Shown piece by piece: positions 3,993 to 20,697 of a stretch of DNA of 32,000 nucleotides; position 1 is the stretch's first letter, and each line of letters begins with the position of its first letter. Origin of the DNA: an uncultured Candidatus Saccharibacteria bacterium (GTDB lineage Bacteria > Patescibacteriota > Minisyncoccia > UBA6257 > UBA11618); contig CAYSNH010000004.1 in the NCBI GenBank assembly GCA_964432405.1, positions 10,737 to 42,736 on the forward strand. The letters are read 5' to 3'. The notes beneath the pieces were generated by a model. That model made no database searches. It saw nothing but the letters and a program-made list of their open reading frames with translations, and was not told the origin of the DNA. The position numbers and the translations under genes were made by a program.

Positions 3993-4020
3993 TTGACTTT
4001 TTTAATAAAAGTAGTATAAT
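3993..4020 (+). promoter_or_regulatory. Promoter of small-ORF module A (TTGACT-16-TATAAT)
   Basis: TTGACT at 3993-3998, TATAAT at 4015-4020. Followed by a leader of about 35 nt and AAGGAG at 4054-4059. Confidence 0.5.
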
Positions 4021-4065
4021 ATAGGCAGTTCTTCAGTTTTTGTAACCTGCATAAAGGAGTAATGC

Positions 4066-4320
4066 ATGTTTTGTCAATATTGTGATGTTGATTTGAACGA
4101 AGAAAACTCTTCGGAGGTGACAGTGATGTATAATCTCTGTTCCGAATGTTTTCATAATTCTGACACCTTGATTTATTTTAGTCATGGTGAAACGGCTGAT
4201 CAGTCTCAGTCATCAGGAGAGAATCAAGACTTTCCTCTTTTGAAACCAAGAAAAGAAGAAGCGGTTGAGGAGTTTGATTCTTTTGATGATTGGAATTTGA
4301 AAACACAAAAGCCTCGTTGA
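4066..4320 (+). CDS. Small hypothetical protein with an N-terminal CxxC...CxxC zinc-ribbon-like motif and an acidic tail (module A)
   Basis: 84-aa ORF. CQYC...CSEC pair. AAGGAG 6 nt upstream of the ATG. Own promoter and terminator. Host-like AT-rich composition (21 G+C in line 4141-4200). Confidence 0.5.
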   Translation: MFCQYCDVDLNEENSSEVTVMYNLCSECFHNSDTLIYFSHGETADQSQSSGENQDFPLLKPRKEEAVEEFDSFDDWNLKTQKPR

Positions 4321-4324
4321 GCTT

Positions 4325-4353
4325 GGGCCCACGCTAGTGTGGGCCCTTTTTTT
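4325..4353 (+). terminator. Rho-independent terminator of module A
   Basis: GGGCCCAC / GTGGGCCC 8-bp GC stem with a 6-nt loop, followed by TTTTTTT. Confidence 0.75.
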
Positions 4354-4386: not shown

Positions 4387-5232
4387 ATGTCCAAGATATT
4401 AATTGTTGATAGTGGAGCAACTAAGACCAGTTGGCTTTATTGCTGCGATGGAGAAAAGAAGCTGCTTAACACCAAGGGGCTTAATCCTTATTTTGTTAGC
4501 GTTTCTGACATTACTAAAATCATTCAAGATACCTTTGCTCCTTTAGGAATTAAAGAGATTGATCATTTATTTTTTTATGGAGCCGATTGTGATGGCGAGC
4601 TTTCAAAGCAGAAGATTAGCCAGGGCTTGAAAAACTATTTTGTTGTAAAGGATCTTTATATAGAGGGAGATCTTTTAGGATCTGCTCGGGCTGCGTGTGG
4701 CAATGAATCAGGAGTCTGTTGCATTTTAGGGACCGGGTCTAACGCTTGTATTTATGATGGAAAAGAAATAACACAGTCTATTGGTGGGCTGGGGTATGTT
4801 TTAGGCGACGAGGGTAGTGGCGCTTATCTAGGTCGCCTATTAGTTCGCAAAGTTTTGAATAGACAGTTGAGCAACGATTTATTAAATAAATTTTTCAAAG
4901 AGTATTCGCTAACCCCTGCCCTTATTCTTGACCAAGTTTACTCTCCTAATCGATCCAGTTATTTTCTAGCTAGCCTAACTCACTTTCTTAAGCAAAATAA
5001 CGACCAACCTGAGATTAGGGAGATTATTAAGCAAAGTTTCGATGACTTTATTAAAGCCAACATTCTTCTTTTACCTAAGTACAAACAATATAAGATTAAC
5101 TCTATTGGCTCGATCGGCTTTTATTTCAAGGAGTTCTTTATATTAGCCTGCAAGGATCATGAGTTGGAGGTGGGGCAGGTGATAGATAGGCCGATAGATC
5201 TCTTGTATCAATTTCACATTAATAATAGCTAA
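4387..5232 (+). CDS. BadF/BadG/BcrA/BcrD-type ATPase, N-acetylglucosamine kinase-like sugar kinase
   Basis: 281-aa ORF with the ASKHA-fold motifs DSGATKT, ILGTGSN and GGLGYVLGDEGSGAYLG. Confidence 0.75.
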   Translation: MSKILIVDSGATKTSWLYCCDGEKKLLNTKGLNPYFVSVSDITKIIQDTFAPLGIKEIDHLFFYGADCDGELSKQKISQGLKNYFVVKDLYIEGDLLGSARAACGNESGVCCILGTGSNACIYDGKEITQSIGGLGYVLGDEGSGAYLGRLLVRKVLNRQLSNDLLNKFFKEYSLTPALILDQVYSPNRSSYFLASLTHFLKQNNDQPEIREIIKQSFDDFIKANILLLPKYKQYKINSIGSIGFYFKEFFILACKDHELEVGQVIDRPIDLLYQFHINNS

Positions 5233-5267
5233 AATCTAACATTGACAGAAAATGGCTTTAGGGGGGG

Positions 5268-5295
5268 TTGACTTTTTTTTATATTAATATATAAT
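5268..5295 (+). promoter_or_regulatory. Promoter of GC-rich module B (TTGACT-16-TATAAT)
   Basis: TTGACT at 5268-5273, TATAAT at 5290-5295. The leader contains the hairpin CGTACC(5304-5309)/GGTACG(5318-5323). AAGGAG at 5344-5349. Confidence 0.55.
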
Positions 5296-5357
5296 AGGGC
5301 AATCGTACCTGAGGATGGGTACGGAGTACGTTAACTTTTTTAGAAGGAGTGCATGCT

Positions 5358-5882
5358 ATGCACGAAGGCGAACAAGTTGGTCAAGGCGGAGCAACGGCAA
5401 CTATTGATCGTTCAGTCCCGGCGGAAAAGAGCGGCGACGGTTTCAAGGCTGTCATTGCGGATTTGATCACTACTCCTGACAGAGTGGCGCTGATCATCTC
5501 GACCAGGCTCACCGGCCAGGAAATGCCCGAGGAGACGAGCGAACTTTCCGCTTCGGAAGTCCAGTTGGTCAAGTATCTTGATCAGCTCGTCCAATGTGGC
5601 AACGAAAAGGCGTTGTCGGAGATACAGGTCGTTGTGAAAAGCGAGGCTTTTCTTCATCAAGTGGATGATGCTGTGAAGCTCATCCAAGGCGACCAGGAAA
5701 GCGTCGCAATTGAAGAGAGGGCTCACGAATCCTCCGAGAAGCTGAAGAGCTTCATTATTGAGGGAGCGATGAAGGCCGCAACTCCGGCTGAGAGCTGGGA
5801 AGTTGAATCGACGCAAGAAGCCAAGACGATTACTGCGATAGCAAGATTGCTGCAGCATCTCGTGTCCTTGCGCTGCGCTTGA
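5358..5882 (+). CDS. Orphan acidic 174-aa protein, GC-rich (module B)
   Basis: The ATG at 5358 is 8 nt after AAGGAG. The track GTG at 5349 overlaps the SD, so I rejected it. G-rich first codon positions (GAA/GGC/GTT/GCG) support coding. 34 G+C in line 5401-5460. No signal peptide or TM segment. No family recognised. Confidence 0.55.
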   Translation: MHEGEQVGQGGATATIDRSVPAEKSGDGFKAVIADLITTPDRVALIISTRLTGQEMPEETSELSASEVQLVKYLDQLVQCGNEKALSEIQVVVKSEAFLHQVDDAVKLIQGDQESVAIEERAHESSEKLKSFIIEGAMKAATPAESWEVESTQEAKTITAIARLLQHLVSLRCA

Positions 5883-5922
5883 TCCTTCTGATCGACGACC
5901 TCTTTTTTGAGATGTCGTGCCG

Positions 5923-5954
5923 CCCCCTGTAGCTTAGGCTGCAGGGGGTTTTTT
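5923..5954 (+). terminator. Rho-independent terminator of module B
   Basis: CCCCCTGTAGC / GCTGCAGGGGG 11-bp stem (one G-U pair), loop TTAG, then TTTTTT. Confidence 0.8.
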
Positions 5955-6003
5955 ATTTCAATAAAGCTTTCCAAAAGCAGTTTTTTGTTTTATTATTTTC
6001 AAT

Positions 6004-11782: not shown

Positions 11783-11803
11783 AAAAACCCCGCTAAAGCA
11801 GGG
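11781..11803 (-). terminator. Rho-independent terminator oriented for minus-strand module E
   Basis: Minus-strand reading: CCCTGC-TTTA-GCGGGG followed by TTTTTTT. The mismatch seen on the plus strand becomes a G-U pair on the minus strand. The TAG stop of ORF E lies in the loop. The permease stop is immediately adjacent. Confidence 0.6.
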
Positions 11804-12026
11804 TTGTAACTCTATCTTTTCTGATCAACGTCACCCTTCCTGAGGGTGATTCTTCTATAATGATGAATTGATCTAAAGCAAAAGTTTTTTCCTCGTGCCA
11901 TCTCTGAGGTCTTTTGTACCCATAGATGAAGGCGGTGAGAAAGGAACAGAGCAGACGACGATCTCTTGATCGTACCCAGAGGACGATGTGATCTTCGTCT
12001 TGCAGGTTAAGTTTAAGTTGTTGCAT
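11793..12026 (-). CDS. Orphan 77-aa protein, GC-enriched (module E)
   Basis: The ATG at 12026 is 8 nt after AAGGAG (12040-12035, minus strand). The track TTG at 12032 is only 2 nt from the SD. 30 G+C in line 11941-12000. Own promoter and terminator. No family recognised. Confidence 0.5.
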   Translation of the reverse strand: MQQLKLNLQDEDHIVLWVRSRDRRLLCSFLTAFIYGYKRPQRWHEEKTFALDQFIIIEESPSGRVTLIRKDRVTTLL

Positions 12027-12068
12027 TTTCAACTCTCCTTAGTTGTGTGATTTTAAATTCCAGGCCAT

Positions 12069-12097
12069 ATCATATAATAATTTAATAAAATTGTCAA
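12069..12097 (-). promoter_or_regulatory. Promoter of module E (TTGACA-17-TATGAT, minus strand)
   Basis: Reverse complement gives TTGACA (12097-12092), a 17-nt spacer and TATGAT (12074-12069). Leader of about 30 nt to the SD. Confidence 0.5.
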
Positions 12098-14328: not shown

Positions 14329-16637
14329 TGAGATACAATCATCAACAAGTAGAAAAGAAGTGGCAAAAGGTTTGGGAGAAGGAAAAGGTTTGGCAAGCCA
14401 ATGACAAATCTAAAAAGAAAAAATATTATTCATTAATTGAATTTCCCTATCCTTCTGGACTTGGTTTGCACGTGGGTCATATAAGGAGTAATACGGCCAT
14501 GGATATAATTTCTCGTAAGAGGAGAATGGAAGGTTATAACGTTCTTTATCCTATCGGCTGGGATGCTTTTGGTCTACCAACCGAAAACTACGCTATCAAA
14601 ACTGGCATCTCACCCCAAAAAGCCACCAAAGAAAATACCGATAATTTTCGTAAGCAATTAAAATCCTTAGGTTTTTCTTTCGATTGGGATCGGGAAATCA
14701 ATACAACCGACCCCAAGTATTATAGATGGACTCAGTGGCTCTTCCTGCAATTCTTCAAACACGGCCTAGCATACAAAGATTCGGTAGCTGTTAACTGGTG
14801 CCCTTCTTGCCTAACTGGTTTAGCTAATGAGGAGGTGGTGGGTGGTAACTGTGATCGTTGTGGTTCAGAGGTAGAGAGAAAACTTAAGAGTCAGTGGATG
14901 CTTCGTATTACCGCTTATGCCGACAAGCTTTTAGATGGTTTGGCGAGCGTTGACTTTTTAGATGAGATAAAAACTCAACAGAAGAATTGGATCGGTCGTT
15001 CTGATGGGCGATTAATTAAATTCCCTATCACCGGTTCCAAATTAGAGATCGATATCTTTACCACTCGTCCCGACACAATCGATGGCGCCACTTATATGGT
15101 CCTAGCTCCCGAGCATCCTTTTATTAGTGAGCTCAAGATTAAGAATGAGAAAGAGGTGGAGCGATATATAAAGAAAGTTCAGAAGAAGAGTGATCGAGAG
15201 CGTCAGGAGAATAAAATCAAGACAGGTATTGAGTTGAAAGGAGTAAAGGTTGTTAATCCTTATAACAACAAGAAGATTCCAGTCTGGGTTTCCGATTATG
15301 TATTAATCGGCTATGGCACTGGAGCTATCATGGCCGTCCCTTTTCATGATGAGCGAGATAGAGAATTTGCTGAGAAGTTTAAGTTACCTATCGAAGATCG
15401 TCCTTTAGTTACTAAAAAAAGAGAGTGGCCGGGCAAGTCTCAAATCAATTACAAACTTAAAGATTGGGTCTTCTCACGCCAACGTTACTGGGGCGAGCCT
15501 ATTCCTATTGTTAATTGTAAGAGTTGTGGCTTTGTGCCTGTTCCAGAAAAAGACCTTCCTATCAAATTGCCTAAGGTTGATAGTTATCGACCACGACCTG
15601 ATGGTCAATCACCGCTAGCCTCTGTTGCTAGCTGGGTAGATGTGAAGTGTCCTAATTGTAAAGGAAAGGCTCGGCGAGAAACTGATACCATGCCTAACTG
15701 GGCGGGTTCTAGTTGGTATTTCTTGCGTTACACCGACTCTCAAAATAATAAAGAATTTGCTGATAAGAAAAAGTTGAAATACTTTATGCCAGTTGATTGG
15801 TATAACGGTGGTATGGAGCACGTCACCTTACACCTCCTCTATTCTCGTTTCTGGAACATCTTTCTTCACGACGTCGGTCTAGTTCCTTGTTCTGAGCCGT
15901 ACAAGAAGAGAACCGCTCACGGTATGATTTTAGGAGAGGGTGGTGAAAAGATGGCTAAGTCTAAAGGCAACGTTATTAACCCAGATGGAGTGGTTAAAAA
16001 GTTTGGAGCAGATTCGCTTCGTCTTTATGAGATGTTCATGGGTCCTTTTGATGAAGCTATTCCATGGGACGACCAAGGAGTGATTGGTACCAGTCGCTTT
16101 ATTAATCGTGTTTATAATATTGGCATGAAAGTGGCTCAGCATAAATCAAAAGCCTCTATCGACAAGGAGTTGGAAAAGCTACTTCATCAAACTATAAAGA
16201 AGGTTAGTCAGGACATTGAACTAATGCGCTTCAATACCGCTATCTCCACCATGATGATTTTTATTAATGAGGTAGAGAAGCACAGCTCTCGAACTGTGAT
16301 CGGTCAGAAATTCTTCTCAGATTTTCTTAAATTACTCTTTCCTTTTGCTCCACATCTGTCACAGGAGCTCTGGAAGGCCGTTGGCAACGACGATTTATTA
16401 GATTTTAAGGCTTGGCCTAAGTGGAAGGAAGGTCTAACTGTTGAGGAGCGATTTGAGCTGATTATACAGATTGATGGTAAGTTGCGAGGTACAGTGGTTG
16501 TTAAGAAGGGATTAAGCAAAAAGGAGGCGATAAAGTTGGCTAATGATCACAAGGTGGTTAAGGGCTATTTAGAAGGGCAGAAAATCAAGAAGGTGATTTT
16601 TGTACCTGATAGGTTAATTAACTTCATTATTGGTTGA
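14328..16637 (+). CDS. leuS: Leucine--tRNA ligase
   Basis: 769 aa. HIGH-type motif (GLHVGHIRS), CP1 editing motifs (TTRPDT, GTGAIMAVPFHDERD), KMSKS-type motif (KMAKSKGN). Its ATG overlaps the tatD stop codon by 1 nt (TAATG). Confidence 0.95.
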   Translation: MRYNHQQVEKKWQKVWEKEKVWQANDKSKKKKYYSLIEFPYPSGLGLHVGHIRSNTAMDIISRKRRMEGYNVLYPIGWDAFGLPTENYAIKTGISPQKATKENTDNFRKQLKSLGFSFDWDREINTTDPKYYRWTQWLFLQFFKHGLAYKDSVAVNWCPSCLTGLANEEVVGGNCDRCGSEVERKLKSQWMLRITAYADKLLDGLASVDFLDEIKTQQKNWIGRSDGRLIKFPITGSKLEIDIFTTRPDTIDGATYMVLAPEHPFISELKIKNEKEVERYIKKVQKKSDRERQENKIKTGIELKGVKVVNPYNNKKIPVWVSDYVLIGYGTGAIMAVPFHDERDREFAEKFKLPIEDRPLVTKKREWPGKSQINYKLKDWVFSRQRYWGEPIPIVNCKSCGFVPVPEKDLPIKLPKVDSYRPRPDGQSPLASVASWVDVKCPNCKGKARRETDTMPNWAGSSWYFLRYTDSQNNKEFADKKKLKYFMPVDWYNGGMEHVTLHLLYSRFWNIFLHDVGLVPCSEPYKKRTAHGMILGEGGEKMAKSKGNVINPDGVVKKFGADSLRLYEMFMGPFDEAIPWDDQGVIGTSRFINRVYNIGMKVAQHKSKASIDKELEKLLHQTIKKVSQDIELMRFNTAISTMMIFINEVEKHSSRTVIGQKFFSDFLKLLFPFAPHLSQELWKAVGNDDLLDFKAWPKWKEGLTVEERFELIIQIDGKLRGTVVVKKGLSKKEAIKLANDHKVVKGYLEGQKIKKVIFVPDRLINFIIG

Positions 16638-16662
16638 CAAAAGGGTTAATAATGGTTAAAAT
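16634..16662 (+). promoter_or_regulatory. Putative promoter (TTGACA-17-TAAAAT) overlapping the leuS stop
   Basis: TTGACA at 16634-16639, TAAAAT at 16657-16662. The signal-peptide ATG at 16670 is 7 nt downstream with no SD. Confidence 0.4.
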
Positions 16663-16669
16663 ATGGCCG

Positions 16670-17707
16670 ATGAAAAATATAAAGGTTTTCGCGGCCATTT
16701 TAATTTTAAGCAATATGTTTATGGGCTTAACAGCTCATGCTTATCATGAATATTATTACCGACCCGAATGGAATCCGGTAACTTATAATTCTGCTCCAAG
16801 ATGGAATGCTGAGACCGTTAAATATGCTCACGTTGGTCAAAATATGACATTTACCGTTTCTGCTAATGATGTTGACGGTGATCGTCTATCTTATTACGGT
16901 ATGTTCTTACCAATAGGAGCTCGTTTTGACAGTCATAGTAGAACTTTTACTTGGACCCCTAGAAAGACTGGAACTTATGATCTACAATTCCGAGTTTATG
17001 ATGGTGGTTATAGTCACTCTGATCTTTATGTTACCGTTGTTGTTGGTAATAGATTGCCAGAGTTTAACAATATAACTCCAGTTGATTATGACTATCCTAC
17101 ACATAATCCAACCAATCCTTCTAGTACTTATTTAAACTTTGTTAACTTTAATCCAGTTAGTACCGCTACTGAGAACCAGCTTTACACTTACACGGTTCAG
17201 ACGAATAGTAGCCATAAGGTAATATACTCTTTACCAAGAGCTCCTCAGGGAATGACCATTAACCCAGACCTAGGTATTATTATCTGGCTACCAAATCAGA
17301 ATCAGGCTCAGCTAGCTCCTTATTTGGTAACGGTTAAAGCTACCAATGGTTATCAGGACATTCAGCTCAACTACAATCTAACTGTTGGTGAGGGTGGTAC
17401 GATCACTCCTCAGCCAAAACCAGATCCTACCCCTCAGCCTACCCCTGGTCCTGTAGTACCAGATGAGCCAGCTGATGATAAGGATGATCAAGACGAAGTT
17501 GAAACTGATGAAGATAAGACAGGTTTTCTAGCTAGCATATTTATTGCTGGTATAGACTTCCTCTTTAGTCCTTGGTTCTTGCTCTTCTTAATCTTTTTAC
17601 TTCTAATACTTTTATTTCTTTGCAAAAGAAAAGGTAAAGGAGAAAAGCAATTAATTGCTTTCATGGAAGAGAGAGATAAAATGGAAGATAAAGAGTTAGA
17701 GGAATAA
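16670..17707 (+). CDS. Secreted surface protein with cadherin-like / putative Ig (He_PIG-type) domains, Pro-rich acidic stalk and C-terminal TM anchor
   Basis: Signal peptide MKNIKVFAAILILSNMFMGLTAHA. VSANDVDGDRLSY...FTWTPRKTGTYDLQFRVYDG resembles cadherin-like Ig repeats. PQPKPDPTPQPTPGP linker and a DE-rich stretch. Hydrophobic C-terminus followed by KRKGKGEK. Confidence 0.65.
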   Translation: MKNIKVFAAILILSNMFMGLTAHAYHEYYYRPEWNPVTYNSAPRWNAETVKYAHVGQNMTFTVSANDVDGDRLSYYGMFLPIGARFDSHSRTFTWTPRKTGTYDLQFRVYDGGYSHSDLYVTVVVGNRLPEFNNITPVDYDYPTHNPTNPSSTYLNFVNFNPVSTATENQLYTYTVQTNSSHKVIYSLPRAPQGMTINPDLGIIIWLPNQNQAQLAPYLVTVKATNGYQDIQLNYNLTVGEGGTITPQPKPDPTPQPTPGPVVPDEPADDKDDQDEVETDEDKTGFLASIFIAGIDFLFSPWFLLFLIFLLLILLFLCKRKGKGEKQLIAFMEERDKMEDKELEE

Positions 17708-17735: not shown

Positions 17736-17756
17736 ATTATCTTTTATAAACTAAAA

Positions 17757-18068
17757 TTAAAAGTCTCCAAAGTCTCCAAAGTCTCCAAAGTCTCCAGAAT
17801 CTCCAAAGCCTCCAGAACCTCCTTCTCTACTGAAGCCCTCATTATTACATTTGTGAGCTCTAAAATGTAAATGAGCGCCATGAGCTGGTCCACAATGAAA
17901 GAGTCCGCCACCAGACGACCCTCCACATCCTTGGGAGTTTCCATCTGGAAGAGGAGTACCCCCAGCCTCTACATGAGTTGATCTAGAAGGTGCTCCAAGC
18001 CAAATTAATAATACGGCGATTGCTATAACAACTAACCAAACAAGACTTTTGTTTTTCTTTTTTGTCAT
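17757..18068 (-). CDS. Small secreted/anchored His-Cys-Gly-rich protein ending in (GDF)n repeats
   Basis: 103 aa. N-terminus MTKKKNKS followed by a hydrophobic helix. Core HCGPAHGAHLHFRAHKC. C-terminus GGSGGFGDSGDFGDFGDFGDF. TATAAT (18082-18077, minus strand) is 8 nt upstream of the ATG. Confidence 0.55.
   Translation of the reverse strand: MTKKKNKSLVWLVVIAIAVLLIWLGAPSRSTHVEAGGTPLPDGNSQGCGGSSGGGLFHCGPAHGAHLHFRAHKCNNEGFSREGGSGGFGDSGDFGDFGDFGDF
17760..17822 (-). repeat. 9-bp in-frame tandem repeat (AAAGTCTCC x4 plus 3 degenerate units) encoding GDF/GDS/GGF triplets
   Basis: Directly visible: four perfect units at 17760-17795, then AGAATCTCC, AAAGCCTCC and AGAACCTCC. Confidence 0.9.
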
Positions 18069-18115: not shown

Positions 18116-19165
18116 TTATTTTCTTTCTGCTAACATAGCTTTCTTCTCAAACTCTCTGCTACCACGTCTTACCTTTAAGAGAACGTAGTCACCAACACCT
18201 TTTTCTTCTAAGAAGTCTTGAATAGTTCTTTCTTTAGTTACCTTCTCACCATTAAACTCTAATACAATATCTTTTTCCTTGAGACCGGCTTTGGCAGCTG
18301 GACTGCTAGGAATAATAGCTGGTTGCTTAGAGCTATGCCCTAATACCAAGGCACCATAATCAACTGGTAATTTCATCTTAGCTTGAAGATTTTCATCAAC
18401 CATTACATAACGAAGACCTAATAATGGTCGTTTTATTCTTCCAAATTTATTGAGATCACTTAGGTCTCTTTTTGCGGCGTTGATAGGAATGGCAAAACTA
18501 AGGTTTTGTGCTCCAAAGACTATAGCAGTATTAATACCAATAACTTGCCCCTTTGCGTTAATAAGTGGTCCACCTGAGTTACCAGGATTAACAGCTGCAT
18601 CGGTTTGGATTAAACCTCTCAATTCTTGCATAGGAGTATTAGGGGCTACCGCAGCTGCGATCGAACGAGAGAGTCCAGAAACAATACCTGAGGAAACAGT
18701 ATTTTTAAATAAGCCTAATGCTGTACCAATAGCTAATACTGGTTGACCAAGGGCTATGGCGTCCGAGTCTCCCAAGCCAATTACAGGCAAACTGCGACCG
18801 GTAATTTTTAAAATCGCTACATCCTCAATTGGATCACGAGCTAAAATAGTGGCTTTATATTTCTTGTTGTCGTTAGTAACGACGGTATAGTCTGATTTAG
18901 CATCCGCCACCACATGCTTGTTAGTTAAAATAATACCCTTAGAACTGACAATGAACCCAGAGCCGCTACCAACCTTAATCATACCGTGGGCATCAGTCAT
19001 TTGTTCGAGTTGTTTTTTAGGGTTTAAAAAGGGAAAGAGGGGAAGCAGTTCACGAGGAATTTCTTTTTCCACGTTCTCCAAACTTTTGGAAATAACAATG
19101 CTAACCATGGAGGGCATATTTTTTTGAATAACCTTTTCCCAACTTACCTGTGCCATCTCTAACAT
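18116..19165 (-). CDS. htrA: HtrA/DegP-family serine protease (S1C) with C-terminal PDZ domain
   Basis: 349 aa. Trypsin-fold motifs (TNKHVV, DVAILK, GNSGGPL). PDZ-like C-terminus (SPAAKAGLKEKDIVLEFNGEKV). Confidence 0.9.
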   Translation of the reverse strand: MLEMAQVSWEKVIQKNMPSMVSIVISKSLENVEKEIPRELLPLFPFLNPKKQLEQMTDAHGMIKVGSGSGFIVSSKGIILTNKHVVADAKSDYTVVTNDNKKYKATILARDPIEDVAILKITGRSLPVIGLGDSDAIALGQPVLAIGTALGLFKNTVSSGIVSGLSRSIAAAVAPNTPMQELRGLIQTDAAVNPGNSGGPLINAKGQVIGINTAIVFGAQNLSFAIPINAAKRDLSDLNKFGRIKRPLLGLRYVMVDENLQAKMKLPVDYGALVLGHSSKQPAIIPSSPAAKAGLKEKDIVLEFNGEKVTKERTIQDFLEEKGVGDYVLLKVRRGSREFEKKAMLAERK

Positions 19166-19200
19166 CTTACCAAATATTTATAATAAATTTTATCAACAGG

Positions 19201-19228
19201 TTGACTTTATTTAAAAAGCTGATATTAT
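19201..19228 (+). promoter_or_regulatory. Promoter of GC-rich module C (TTGACT-16-TATTAT)
   Basis: TTGACT at 19201-19206, TATTAT at 19223-19228. Leader of about 30 nt, then AAGGAG at 19261-19266. Confidence 0.5.
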
Positions 19229-19273
19229 CATTTAATATCGTTCTTTGCACAATTGTAGAAAAGGAGTTTCAAG

Positions 19274-19579
19274 TTGGAAACTGGAGTTAAGGAAGGGCTT
19301 GATCGTTGCTATGTGATTCTCAGACGTCCCGAGCGTCAGGATACGGCTATCGTATTGTGTCCGGGGATGGAAATGCACATTTTCGATCAAGACGAGGAGT
19401 CTTTTGACAGATTGTTTAACCAGATTGAGGAGGCTACCGGATGCAAGTTTGTTCCAAGAGGTGATTTAACCTCAGTCGTTTTATATGCAAGAGAAAAGCT
19501 GGAAGACGACTTGCAAGAAAAAGTGGAATTGCTTGAAGACGCTACTTATGCGTCGGCTGAGACCGTTGTACTTGGTTAG
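19274..19579 (+). CDS. Orphan acidic 101-aa protein, GC-rich (module C)
   Basis: TTG start 7 nt after AAGGAG. 33 G+C in line 19321-19380. No signal peptide or TM segment. No family recognised. Confidence 0.5.
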   Translation: METGVKEGLDRCYVILRRPERQDTAIVLCPGMEMHIFDQDEESFDRLFNQIEEATGCKFVPRGDLTSVVLYAREKLEDDLQEKVELLEDATYASAETVVLG

Positions 19580-19598
19580 GGTCTGACAAGCAACACCC

Positions 19599-19631
19599 CC
19601 CGCTTAAGCTGTATAGCTGAGCGGGTTTTTT
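19599..19631 (+). terminator. Rho-independent terminator of module C
   Basis: CCCGCT...AGCGGG outer stem with an inner AGCT/AGCT pairing, followed by TTTTTT. Confidence 0.75.
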
Positions 19632-19641
19632 ATTACACCCC

Positions 19642-19670
19642 TTTACAAAAATAAACTTTTGTTGTATAAT
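19642..19670 (+). promoter_or_regulatory. Promoter of GC-rich module D (TTTACA-17-TATAAT)
   Basis: TTTACA at 19642-19647, TATAAT at 19665-19670. AAGGAG at 19697-19702. Confidence 0.55.
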
Positions 19671-19708
19671 GGCAGATAGTTACTTCACATTTCGAAAAGG
19701 AGTTAGAA

Positions 19709-20101
19709 ATGACTACGTTTTCTGTTACCTTTCCTTCCGCAGTGATGGTTCCTGGTTATGGCGTTATTGATGACGTCGAGCCGGTACGAGGCGCTCATGA
19801 TGCGTGCATCAAGCCAGTGTTGCGGCAAGGAGAAAAGAATCGTGTCCTCAGCTTAGACGAGCTGAAGATGAGAGCTATCGAAGAAAGAGGTGACTTGGGG
19901 ATCAGAGATCTCAATTTCATCATGCAGACCAGCGTCCTACCTGAGGATGGTCTGGTGTACATCTTTCCGGGAACTATCTTGGAAAGAGATGGTGAGGTCT
20001 TCGTGCCTTATACTTACTTCGACAGCGTAGGTCTGACAAGAGGTTTTCGCAATCTCAAGGAAGGCTTCACTCAGCACGACAGGTTTTTCTGTCTTTGTTA
20101 A
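19709..20101 (+). CDS. Orphan 130-aa protein, GC-rich (module D)
   Basis: ATG 6 nt after AAGGAG. 32 G+C in line 19741-19800. No signal peptide. No family recognised. Confidence 0.55.
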   Translation: MTTFSVTFPSAVMVPGYGVIDDVEPVRGAHDACIKPVLRQGEKNRVLSLDELKMRAIEERGDLGIRDLNFIMQTSVLPEDGLVYIFPGTILERDGEVFVPYTYFDSVGLTRGFRNLKEGFTQHDRFFCLC

Positions 20102-20127
20102 AGAGATGGAGAGCTGAAAACACAAAA

Positions 20128-20157
20128 CCCTATCGGTTTTTCCGATAGGGTTTTTTT
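20128..20157. terminator. Bidirectional intrinsic terminator (module D on plus strand, tRNA operon on minus strand)
   Basis: CCCTATCGG-TTTTT-CCGATAGGG perfect 9-bp stem, with AAAA upstream and TTTTTTT downstream. It lies 7 nt from the 3' end of the minus-strand tRNA-Ala. Confidence 0.8.
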
Positions 20158-20163
20158 ATTGTG

Positions 20164-20236
20164 TGGACCGTAGGAGAATCGAACTCCTGACCTCCTCATT
20201 GCAAATGAGGCGCTCTACCGACTGAGCTAACGGCCC
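20164..20236 (-). tRNA. tRNA-Ala (anticodon TGC)
   Basis: Reverse complement GGGCCGTTAGCTCAGTCGGTAGAGCGCCTCATTTGCAATGAGGAGGTCAGGAGTTCGATTCTCCTACGGTCCA. Has the G3:U70 identity pair. Anticodon loop TTTGCAA. Confidence 0.9.
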
Positions 20237-20239
20237 ATG

Positions 20240-20321
20240 CGGAGGGTATAGGAATCGAACCTATGAGGGATTGCTCCCGCCGCTTTTCGAAAGCGGTGCA
20301 TTACCATTCTGCCAACCCTCC
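20240..20321 (-). tRNA. tRNA-Ser (anticodon CGA), long variable arm
   Basis: Reverse complement begins GGAGGGTTGGCAGAATGG. Anticodon stem CCGCT/AGCGG with loop TTCGAAA. Long variable arm. T-arm ATAGG-TTCGATT-CCTAT. Confidence 0.85.
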
Positions 20322-20323
20322 TG

Positions 20324-20396
20324 TGTCCCTACCAGGAATCGAACCTAGATCTAGAGTTTAGGAAACTCTCGTTTTATCCATTAAACTACAGGGACA
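20324..20396 (-). tRNA. tRNA-Arg (anticodon CCT)
   Basis: Reverse complement GTCCCTGTAGTTTAATGGATAAAACGAGAGTTTCCTAAACTCTAGATCTAGGTTCGATTCCTGGTAGGGACA. Anticodon loop TTCCTAA. Confidence 0.85.
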
Positions 20397-20486
20397 AGTT
20401 TTCAATCAACCCTATTATACCGAATTGTCAATTATTTAACAATAGCTGTACAAAGGATATCTAATATTATATATTTTTTTAGTATT

Positions 20487-20559
20487 GGGCCATTAGCTCA
20501 GCTGGCAGAGCGCTTCTATGGCATAGAAGAGGTCATCGGTTCAAATCCGATATGGTCCA
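20487..20559 (+). tRNA. tRNA-Ala (anticodon GGC)
   Basis: GGGCCATTAGCTCAGCTGGCAGAGCGCTTCTATGGCATAGAAGAGGTCATCGGTTCAAATCCGATATGGTCCA. G3:U70 present. Anticodon loop ATGGCAT. Confidence 0.9.
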
Positions 20560-20566
20560 CAGTCAA

Positions 20567-20602
20567 ATAGTACATACTATAGTACATACCTTAGTATATA
20601 CT
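20567..20602. repeat. Three tandem 12-bp units (ATAGTACATACT / ATAGTACATACC / TTAGTATATACT) between convergent tRNA genes
   Basis: Read directly from the sequence. Confidence 0.8.
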
Positions 20603-20614
20603 ATTTTTAATTGG

Positions 20615-20697
20615 CGGAGGGTATAGGATTCGAACCTATAAGGGATTGCTCCCGCCGGTTTTCAAGACCGGTGCATTAGCCGTTCTGCCAACCCTCC
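20615..20697 (-). tRNA. tRNA-Ser (anticodon TGA), long variable arm; genomic CCA follows (to 20612)
   Basis: Reverse complement begins GGAGGGTTGGCAGAACGG. Anticodon stem CCGGT/ACCGG with loop CTTGAAA. 3' end is ...ACCCTCCG followed by CCA. Confidence 0.85.

Follow-up and report, generated by a model that had tools for sequence, protein, structure and literature searches.

The variable proteins of diversity-generating retroelements (DGRs) from bacteria of the Candidate Phyla Radiation (CPR) are the closest described relatives of the locus studied here; they reportedly correspond to DGR clade 2 of Roux et al. 2021 and are said to form, in Wu et al. 2018, a 'CPR set' with unclassified classes of variable region (VR). 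In Mtd from Bordetella phage BPP-1 and TvpA from Treponema denticola, as in the family described below, the variable residues lie in the last ~40 positions of a compact alpha/beta domain. Transmembrane segments and known domains are typically missing from the DGR targets of CPR bacteria, among which new variants of the C-type lectin are to be expected (PMC8144416). DGR targets need, as a conserved feature, a GC-rich hairpin located 4-34 bp past the VR (PMC3240598), and DGRs have been reported as rare in the open-ocean biome (PMC8144416). Here, we analyzed a stretch of 32,000 nucleotides (the window) from an uncultured Candidatus Saccharibacteria bacterium (assembly GCA_964432405.1, contig CAYSNH010000004.1, positions 10,737 to 42,736), in which two co-oriented open reading frames (ORFs), genes C and D, are located between htrA and a cluster of five tRNA genes. 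We consider it likely that both are ordinary genes on the chromosome of a marine CPR bacterium, each transcribed independently, D being an orphaned DGR target in an array shaped by recombination and C an unrelated orphan.

Relationship of gene D to DGR variable proteins

Gene D (19709..20101, + strand) encodes a protein of 130 aa that has no match in the Pfam, PHROGs, NCBIfam, and PADLOC libraries. A word-indexed search with D retrieved near-identical copies and the product of E only, E being a third unit carried by some strains at the same locus. An exhaustive hmmsearch with a D/E profile revealed 41 proteins at E <= 1e-3, most of them 150-200 aa long and none with a Pfam domain, and a second search returned named family members from Parcubacteria and Yanofskybacteria metagenome-assembled genomes (MAGs). 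The matches cover D along the full-length C-terminal domain of its relatives, for which the family consensus is LIPxGWxVxEDVxP ... GE ... GxEMRxRA ... ANLGLxDA ... IP ... FPGTxLR ... VPYLxWxGxRWxLxFxWL ... W ... RLxR. Both D and E keep the scaffold motifs V-x-DDVEP, GE, ELKMRA, G-x-LG-x-RD, FPGT, VPY, and DR.

Comparison of D/E with the DGR-linked subfamily by hhalign gave a probability of 97.3% (E = 2.6e-11) over D residues 35-126, of which ~91-126 fall on the variable region. From the hhalign columns, the D segment aligning with the VR of DGR-linked relatives (residues 141-182 in the member P0051) comprises residues ~91-130, encoded at 19979..20098 on the + strand. Profile search and hhalign thus both point to D being a truncated member of a Patescibacteria family of DGR variable proteins that is itself absent from Pfam, which ties an orphan gene to the CPR DGR variable proteins and gives it an evolutionary home. 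Between D and E, dN/dS is about 0.27 with saturated dS, and both are therefore maintained as proteins.

The AlphaFold2 model of D reached a mean predicted local distance difference test (pLDDT) of 66 with three sequences, a model for which the Foldseek search was uninformative, and of 90.9 (predicted template-modeling score 0.83) with the family alignment, a gain in line with family membership. Its elements are ordered beta-beta-alpha-alpha-beta5. The top Foldseek hits of the model in the Protein Data Bank (PDB), namely the C-type lectin domains of BDCA2, EMS16, rhodocetin, and aggrecan G1, are all at E >= 0.69 with template-modeling (TM) scores <= 0.40; nothing significant was found against BFVD, and a PDB search with the family profile gave no meaningful hit. 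The resemblance of the predicted model to C-type lectins, the fold known for DGR variable proteins, is suggestive only. Neither the sequence nor the structure of D matches Mtd or TvpA significantly; D also differs from them by its much smaller size and by the lack of an FGE-sulfatase or DUF1566 signature.

Family members as DGR targets in other genomes

A genome scan identified 34 family loci, all in Patescibacteria MAGs (loci in other genomes are labeled L007, L009, and L012-L044; strain contigs of the window are labeled L001, L002, L005, L006, L046-L053, etc.). The gene of P0051 (L007/L012) is followed downstream by genes for bAvd and an RVT_1 reverse transcriptase (RT). Its last 125 nt recur 417 nt downstream at 83% identity, and 21/21 mismatches are at adenines of the downstream copy, which is the defining DGR signature. 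The full layout of target, template repeat (TR), Avd, and RT was found in 11 of the 34 loci, with TR/VR mismatches nearly all at template adenines (10/12 to 24/24, for example 23/23, 24/24, 15/15, and 21/21). A twelfth locus, L016, contains a template repeat and Avd but gave no hit for RT; in L019, Avd and RT are present without an adenine-pattern repeat. The TR, Avd, and RT were the only conserved neighbors of the family genes. In these DGR-bearing relatives, the Avd/RT pair would rewrite the last ~40 residues of the target from the template repeat by adenine-specific mutagenesis.

Three loci show a route to orphan copies. The decayed DGRs of L017 (5707-5997) and L032 (5751-5984) keep only a short RT remnant beside the family gene, and L037 (3367-5971) contains three tandem family genes without any RT. 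Downstream of the stop codon, a long, perfect hairpin followed by a T-run within 160 nt was present for 16/34 family genes versus 44/531 control ORFs.

A phage genome of 41 kb (L056, IMGVR_UViG_3300012925_000005, identical to L009) carries the gene of one member, P0057 (154 aa; L009 6001-6465), among genes for RecT, HNH, YopX, and RusA. Unlike the cellular members, this phage-borne gene is AT-rich (GC 0.31).

Gene D as a putative orphaned target

No RT or Avd was found near D in a Pfam scan of the larger window ORFs, and tblastn of the window with four RTs and four Avds gave nothing under E = 1. Likewise, no RT, Avd, or template repeat was present in the related strain loci tested (L001, L046, and L053), and neither the window nor the 16 kb of L001 searched contained a repeat of 19979-20101. 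Over 11 contigs from at least six samples, the 120 nt equivalent to the VR showed one synonymous C/T polymorphism and no amino-acid change. Moreover, typical members have an N-terminal helical region of ~55 residues that is missing from D, as are most scaffold tryptophans of the variable region. The GC-rich inverted repeat expected past the VR equivalent is present in D as a 13-pair hairpin 22 nt after the stop.

D shares with the CPR DGR variable proteins a homology that spans the ligand-binding domain in full, with the VR-equivalent C-terminus included, the lack of a signal peptide, transmembrane segment, and Pfam domain, and a GC-rich hairpin past the stop. Unlike CPR DGR targets, D and E lack the N-terminal ~55 aa, a nearby TR, Avd, or RT, VR variation among strains, and most of the scaffold tryptophans, and they behave as fixed paralogues. 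As judged from these comparisons, D is an orphaned, truncated, DGR-less member of the family and not an active target; it is a new truncated, retroelement-less variant among the known CPR DGR variable proteins. The family would accordingly outlast its retroelement, truncated and non-diversifying paralogues persisting in an open-ocean lineage.

Both D and E may be viewed as orphaned members in which the scaffold motifs were kept and both the helical N-terminal part and the tryptophan scaffold disappeared. D would then consist of the C-terminal ~115-residue domain alone of a CPR-specific family, as a small soluble protein. With no signal peptide, transmembrane segment, or hydrophobic N-terminus, and an isoelectric point (pI) of 5.0, it could act as a cytoplasmic binding protein of fixed specificity, a ligand-binding role and location that we infer. 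Its strong promoter, Shine-Dalgarno sequence, and GC-rich hairpin ~25 nt past the stop would represent the usual expression mode of the family, and the hairpin could derive from the one that DGRs require at their target site, past the VR.

Module E and copy number among strains

The same locus was found in ten other marine metagenome contigs at 99.2-99.6% identity, including one from a Tara Oceans mesopelagic 0.1-0.22 µm sample, and in one further contig (L006) at 95.4% identity. No strain seen lacks C or D, and this includes the 95% one. The polymorphic element is module E, a third unit encoding a 139-aa protein 55% identical to D; it was found in 4 of the 11 strain contigs (L001, L002, L050, and L052), where it separates the D terminator from tRNA-Ala. 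In the window, L005, L046-L049, and L051, E is absent and the D terminator runs directly into tRNA-Ala. The comparison of the htrA-tRNA interval among relatives that the first-pass annotation had proposed, as a check for presence/absence polymorphism, yielded such a polymorphism for E, but not for C and D.

The homology between the D and E units runs from the tail of the preceding terminator, GGGTTTTTT(T)ATTAC, via the -35 and -10 boxes, the leader, and AAAGGAGTTAGAAATG to the terminator. Positions 20117-20160 of the window align to both terminators of L001 (7874-7917 and 8419-8462), and the breakpoints of E therefore lie inside a repeat. This arrangement suggests a signature of unequal homologous recombination rather than of site-specific insertion. 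The contigs with E do not all have the same SNP background, an indication of recombination or repeated loss. In the scenario that we favor, an old duplication of the D unit would have given rise to E, and unequal homologous recombination between terminators with near-identical tails (GGGTTTTTT(T)ATT) would alter the copy number, with a recent loss or re-gain, the direction being inferred, leaving E present or absent among strains that are ~99.5% identical.

Base composition of genes C and D

Gene C has a GC content of 45.4% and a third-position GC content (GC3) of 0.44 (z = 2.8 and 2.6, respectively), and gene D of 48.1% and 0.52 (z = 4.1 and 4.7), relative to 39.5 ± 2.1% and 0.349 ± 0.036 for the 30 other ORFs of the window. 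Both genes had been described in the first-pass annotation as far more GC-rich than their surroundings; they are indeed outliers (z 2.6-4.7), but the difference, 6-9 points, is modest.

A GC excess over the rest of the locus was found at 32 of 35 family loci, with a mean of +11.9 points and GC3 values up to 0.9, and it is distributed evenly along the gene length. As this GC-richness is common to the family, it is no evidence of recent insertion: the raised GC of D comes with its family ancestry. In the same cassettes, RT and Avd do not exceed the genome background, with RT GC values of 0.27-0.42 in 9/10 loci. If general, the whole-gene excess of the targets over both the genome and their own RT and Avd could aid the detection of such genes, and it could bear on how DGR targets are maintained.

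Over their whole length, the family target genes have GC3 values of 0.52-0.91 (L012-L044, for example 5001-5546 versus 6402-7379 in L012, and D in the window). Adenine depletion was considered as a cause of the GC-richness and rejected, since third positions lose T more than A.

Expression signals and gene C

The promoter of C (19201..19228, + strand) consists of TTGACT at 19201-19206, a 16-nt spacer, and an extended -10 element, TG-n-TATTAT, with TATTAT at 19223-19228, and matches the consensus at 10/12 positions. In L006, the strain of 95% identity, the htrA-C spacer that carries it is conserved at 96% identity. A Shine-Dalgarno sequence, AAGGAG (19261..19266), is located 7 nt 5' of the TTG start, and the gene is followed by a terminator (19599..19634) formed by a hairpin at 19599-19625 and a T-run (-16.3 kcal/mol, z = -3.95). 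The tail of this terminator, GGGTTTTTTATTAC, is the left edge of the D/E repeat unit, as seen by alignment of the C-to-D and D-to-E spacers. The D promoter (19642..19670, + strand), with TTTACA at 19642-19647, a 17-nt spacer, and TATAAT at 19665-19670 (11/12), has its homologue in the module E promoter of L001. The D Shine-Dalgarno sequence, AAGGAG (19697..19702), lies 6 nt 5' of the ATG, and its region, AAAGGAGTTAGAAATG, is unchanged in module E.

The D terminator (20124..20160), which is also the site of the module E indel, comprises a hairpin at 20124-20154 followed by a T-run (-20.1 kcal/mol, z = -5.58). Its perfect core, CCCTATCGG/CCGATAGGG, extends to 13 pairs and scores on both strands. 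The loop is TTTTT, not GRNA, and the T-run after the hairpin makes it also a terminator. No shuffled sequence folded as stably as either of the two terminator hairpins, and folding revealed no unusual structure in the 5' leaders of C and D. Within the window, only six promoter matches reach >=11/12; four precede small stand-alone ORFs and one a tRNA gene, a placement beyond chance. The shared promoter, Shine-Dalgarno, and terminator layout is what any stand-alone gene needs.

All these signals lie where the first-pass annotation had read them, and its description of two autonomous monocistronic units of a composition unlike that of their neighbors was confirmed. It had placed neither protein in a family, which still holds for C and no longer for D following the profile search and hhalign.

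Gene C (19274..19579, + strand) encodes an acidic protein of 101 aa (pI 4.3) from a TTG start at 19274. Only near-identical copies were found as homologues, with no match in Pfam, PHROGs, NCBIfam, or PADLOC and no meaningful hit in the PDB. C is unrelated to the family by hhalign and to the 174-aa protein described below by BLASTP. Relative to the closest strains, C shows five non-synonymous and no synonymous changes, against 8 non-synonymous and 41 synonymous changes for 11 flanking genes pooled (Fisher p = 4e-4). Relative to the 95% strain, pN/pS is 0.046/0.107 (0.43) for C and 0/0.254 for HtrA. C is therefore a coding, fast-evolving, acidic orphan with its own signals, unrelated to D and fixed in the species.

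The alignment of L006 1-1081 with window positions 18746-19826 is mosaic, with pS = 0.25 for htrA, 99.2% identity in the C-D spacer, and pS = 0.11 for C. This mosaic divergence hints at a recombination or a sweep of the C-D segment.

Weighing of alternative explanations

Several observations weigh against the reading of D as an orphaned DGR target on an ordinary chromosomal locus. Single family members match the D/E profile at just E = 1e-4 to 3e-7, and the evidence for homology is therefore at the level of profiles. Support for the fold is weak, since the top PDB hits, which are C-type lectin domains and constitute the likeness to Mtd and TvpA, are at E = 0.69 with a TM score of 0.37. The whole-gene GC enrichment beside AT-rich RT and Avd genes in the same cassette falls outside this reading, and C and the 174-aa gene are GC-rich though not family members, which makes an explanation by family trait incomplete. 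Finally, our search for a retroelement covered the window and the strain loci, which leaves some room for a remote DGR elsewhere in the genome. D and E would in that case be active targets acted on in trans, with the hairpin as target-recognition element and a diversified C-terminal surface. This is compatible with the homology of D to bona fide DGR targets across the variable region, with the absence of an RT within 5 kb at about half of the family loci, and with the MAG CAYHBW01, which has one DGR-linked copy and three without a local RT; the GC-rich hairpin ~25 nt past the D stop also resembles the described target feature (PMC3240598). Yet the VR equivalent shows no amino-acid change and one synonymous SNP over the 11 contigs, the E-like proteins P0005 and P0002 differ, by eye, more N-terminally than in this segment, the tryptophan scaffold positions are lost in D, neither RT, Avd, nor template repeat was detected in the 32 kb window or the strain loci tested, and the hairpin loop is TTTTT instead of GRNA. 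We regard active diversification from a distance as very unlikely. Very unlikely, too, is a joint function of C and D in a conflict module of two genes, such as C as acidic inhibitor or antitoxin and D as binder or effector. Separate transcription with a strong terminator between C and D, the lack of any PADLOC or Pfam hit, and the absence of a C-like gene beside the other family members (35 loci) speak against such a pairing, which would otherwise be in line with the adjacency and co-orientation of C and D in every strain, with C being a small, very acidic, and fast-evolving protein, and with the variable copy number of E.

Phage morons, as defined by Hendrix and colleagues, are autonomous promoter-ORF-terminator units of deviant composition. 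The C and D units resemble them by their own sigma-70-type promoter, intrinsic terminator, and odd base composition, and the first-pass annotation had viewed them as foreign DNA landed at a tRNA gene and as part of a dispersed set of cassettes. Such a recent acquisition could also account for the location at the 3' end of tRNA-Ala and the gain or loss of E as a whole unit, both reminiscent of tRNA-linked islands and integron cassettes, for the family member found in a phage genome (L009/L056), and for a C-D segment less diverged than htrA at silent sites relative to the 95% strain. Unlike morons, however, C and D are located between chromosomal housekeeping genes (htrA, tRNAs, comF-like, pilM/O, and aminoacyl-tRNA synthetase genes), outside any prophage context, and are fixed in the species, being present in all strains. 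The absence of integrase and att-like repeats, already noted in the first-pass annotation, was verified: Pfam revealed no integrase domain in the larger window ORFs, no transposase was found, the 3' 21-mer of tRNA-Ala occurs once even with three mismatches, leaving no att copy, and there are no flanking direct repeats. This distinguishes the locus from tRNA-linked islands, as do indel breakpoints of E within homologous terminator tails, which are those that unequal crossing-over predicts. Unlike integron cassettes, the units have neither attC nor intI and carry their own promoters; the inverted repeats are simple terminators only, with no attC-like site. Furthermore, GC-richness is common to family members (32/35), no tRNA gene directly abuts a family gene in 35 other loci, the proteins of the cassettes are mutually unrelated, and one comparable unit is AT-rich. 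No phage homologue of C, D, or the 174-aa protein was detected by tblastn against 50,697 phage records. A D/E alignment search of metagenome-contig and viral-contig collections, from which the organism seems to be absent, and an alignment A4 search of viral contigs gave nothing. Neither the landing of foreign DNA at the tRNA nor the dispersed cassette set is upheld, and recent acquisition appears improbable; searches for genomic islands in CPR genomes should not by default take small, self-contained, GC-rich genes next to tRNAs for recent insertions. Beyond the orphaned-target reading, one might speculate that the family constitutes a new minimal cytoplasmic ligand-binding fold, that its GC content marks an undescribed targeting requirement or by-product, and that D, E, and perhaps C are domesticated descendants of fixed specificity in a recognition array of rapid turnover, directed at symbiont-host or anti-phage functions. 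We give this extension a small chance.

Other stand-alone units and genomic context

Three further units of the window have a similar layout. The 174-aa unit (5268-5958) combines an 11/12 promoter, AAGGAG, an acidic orphan ORF (5358-5882, ATG at 5358) with 53% GC and a GC3 z of 6.8, and a terminator of 12 pairs (-25.5 kcal/mol); the gene occupies the same position in the other strain contigs carrying it. Its protein has no match in Pfam, PHROGs, NCBIfam, or PADLOC, no meaningful PDB hit, and no relation to the family by hhalign. An 84-aa Cys-rich ORF (4066-4320; unit 3993-4346) has an 11/12 promoter, a strong terminator, no family match, and only 36.5% GC. The third unit (11786-12097) contains a 77/79-aa ORF (11793-12032, - strand), also with an 11/12 promoter and a strong terminator. 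The 79-aa product, like that of a 103-aa ORF located at lower window coordinates than htrA, has no match in the library scans. No similarity was detected among C, D, and the 174-aa protein. The candidate reading of these units as a new family of mobile expression cassettes, dispersed over the window, is unsupported, given the unrelated proteins of these units and an 84-aa unit that is not GC-rich.

The window has a GC content of 39.9% and a gene content resembling the chromosome of a small-genome bacterium, including genes for ribosomal protein L19, RecO, the Gly-, Met-, and Leu-tRNA synthetases, TatD, HtrA, a ComF-like protein, and a type IV pilus cluster (pilM/O). The left neighbor of C, htrA (18116..19165, - strand), encodes a trypsin-like protease with PDZ according to its Pfam hits and is under strong purifying selection. 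On the right, ARAGORN and Rfam identified five tRNA genes (20163..20697, mixed strands), namely Ala-UGC (-), Ser-CGA (-), Arg-CCU (-), Ala-GGC (+), and Ser-UGA (-). tRNA-Ala(UGC) begins at 20163, with its 3' end facing the D terminator. The Rfam scan of the window revealed tRNAs only, with no riboswitch or leader family. tRNA-Ser(CGA) (20239-20303) and tRNA-Ser(UGA) (20614-20678) are 91% identical over 65 nt, and several tRNAs of the cluster decode G/C-ending codons, which are rare in this AT-rich genome.

Strain variation was also observed on the other side of htrA. The 103-aa ORF (17757-18068, - strand) holds a 9-nt tandem repeat of about six copies at 17760-17822; its length varies by strain, with 97 aa in L001-L004, and window positions 17740-17982 fail to align to these strains. 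In addition, a protein with He_PIG/Big_9 Ig domains and a hydrophobic C-terminal tail (16634-17707) ranges from 327 to 357 aa among ~99.5%-identical strains.

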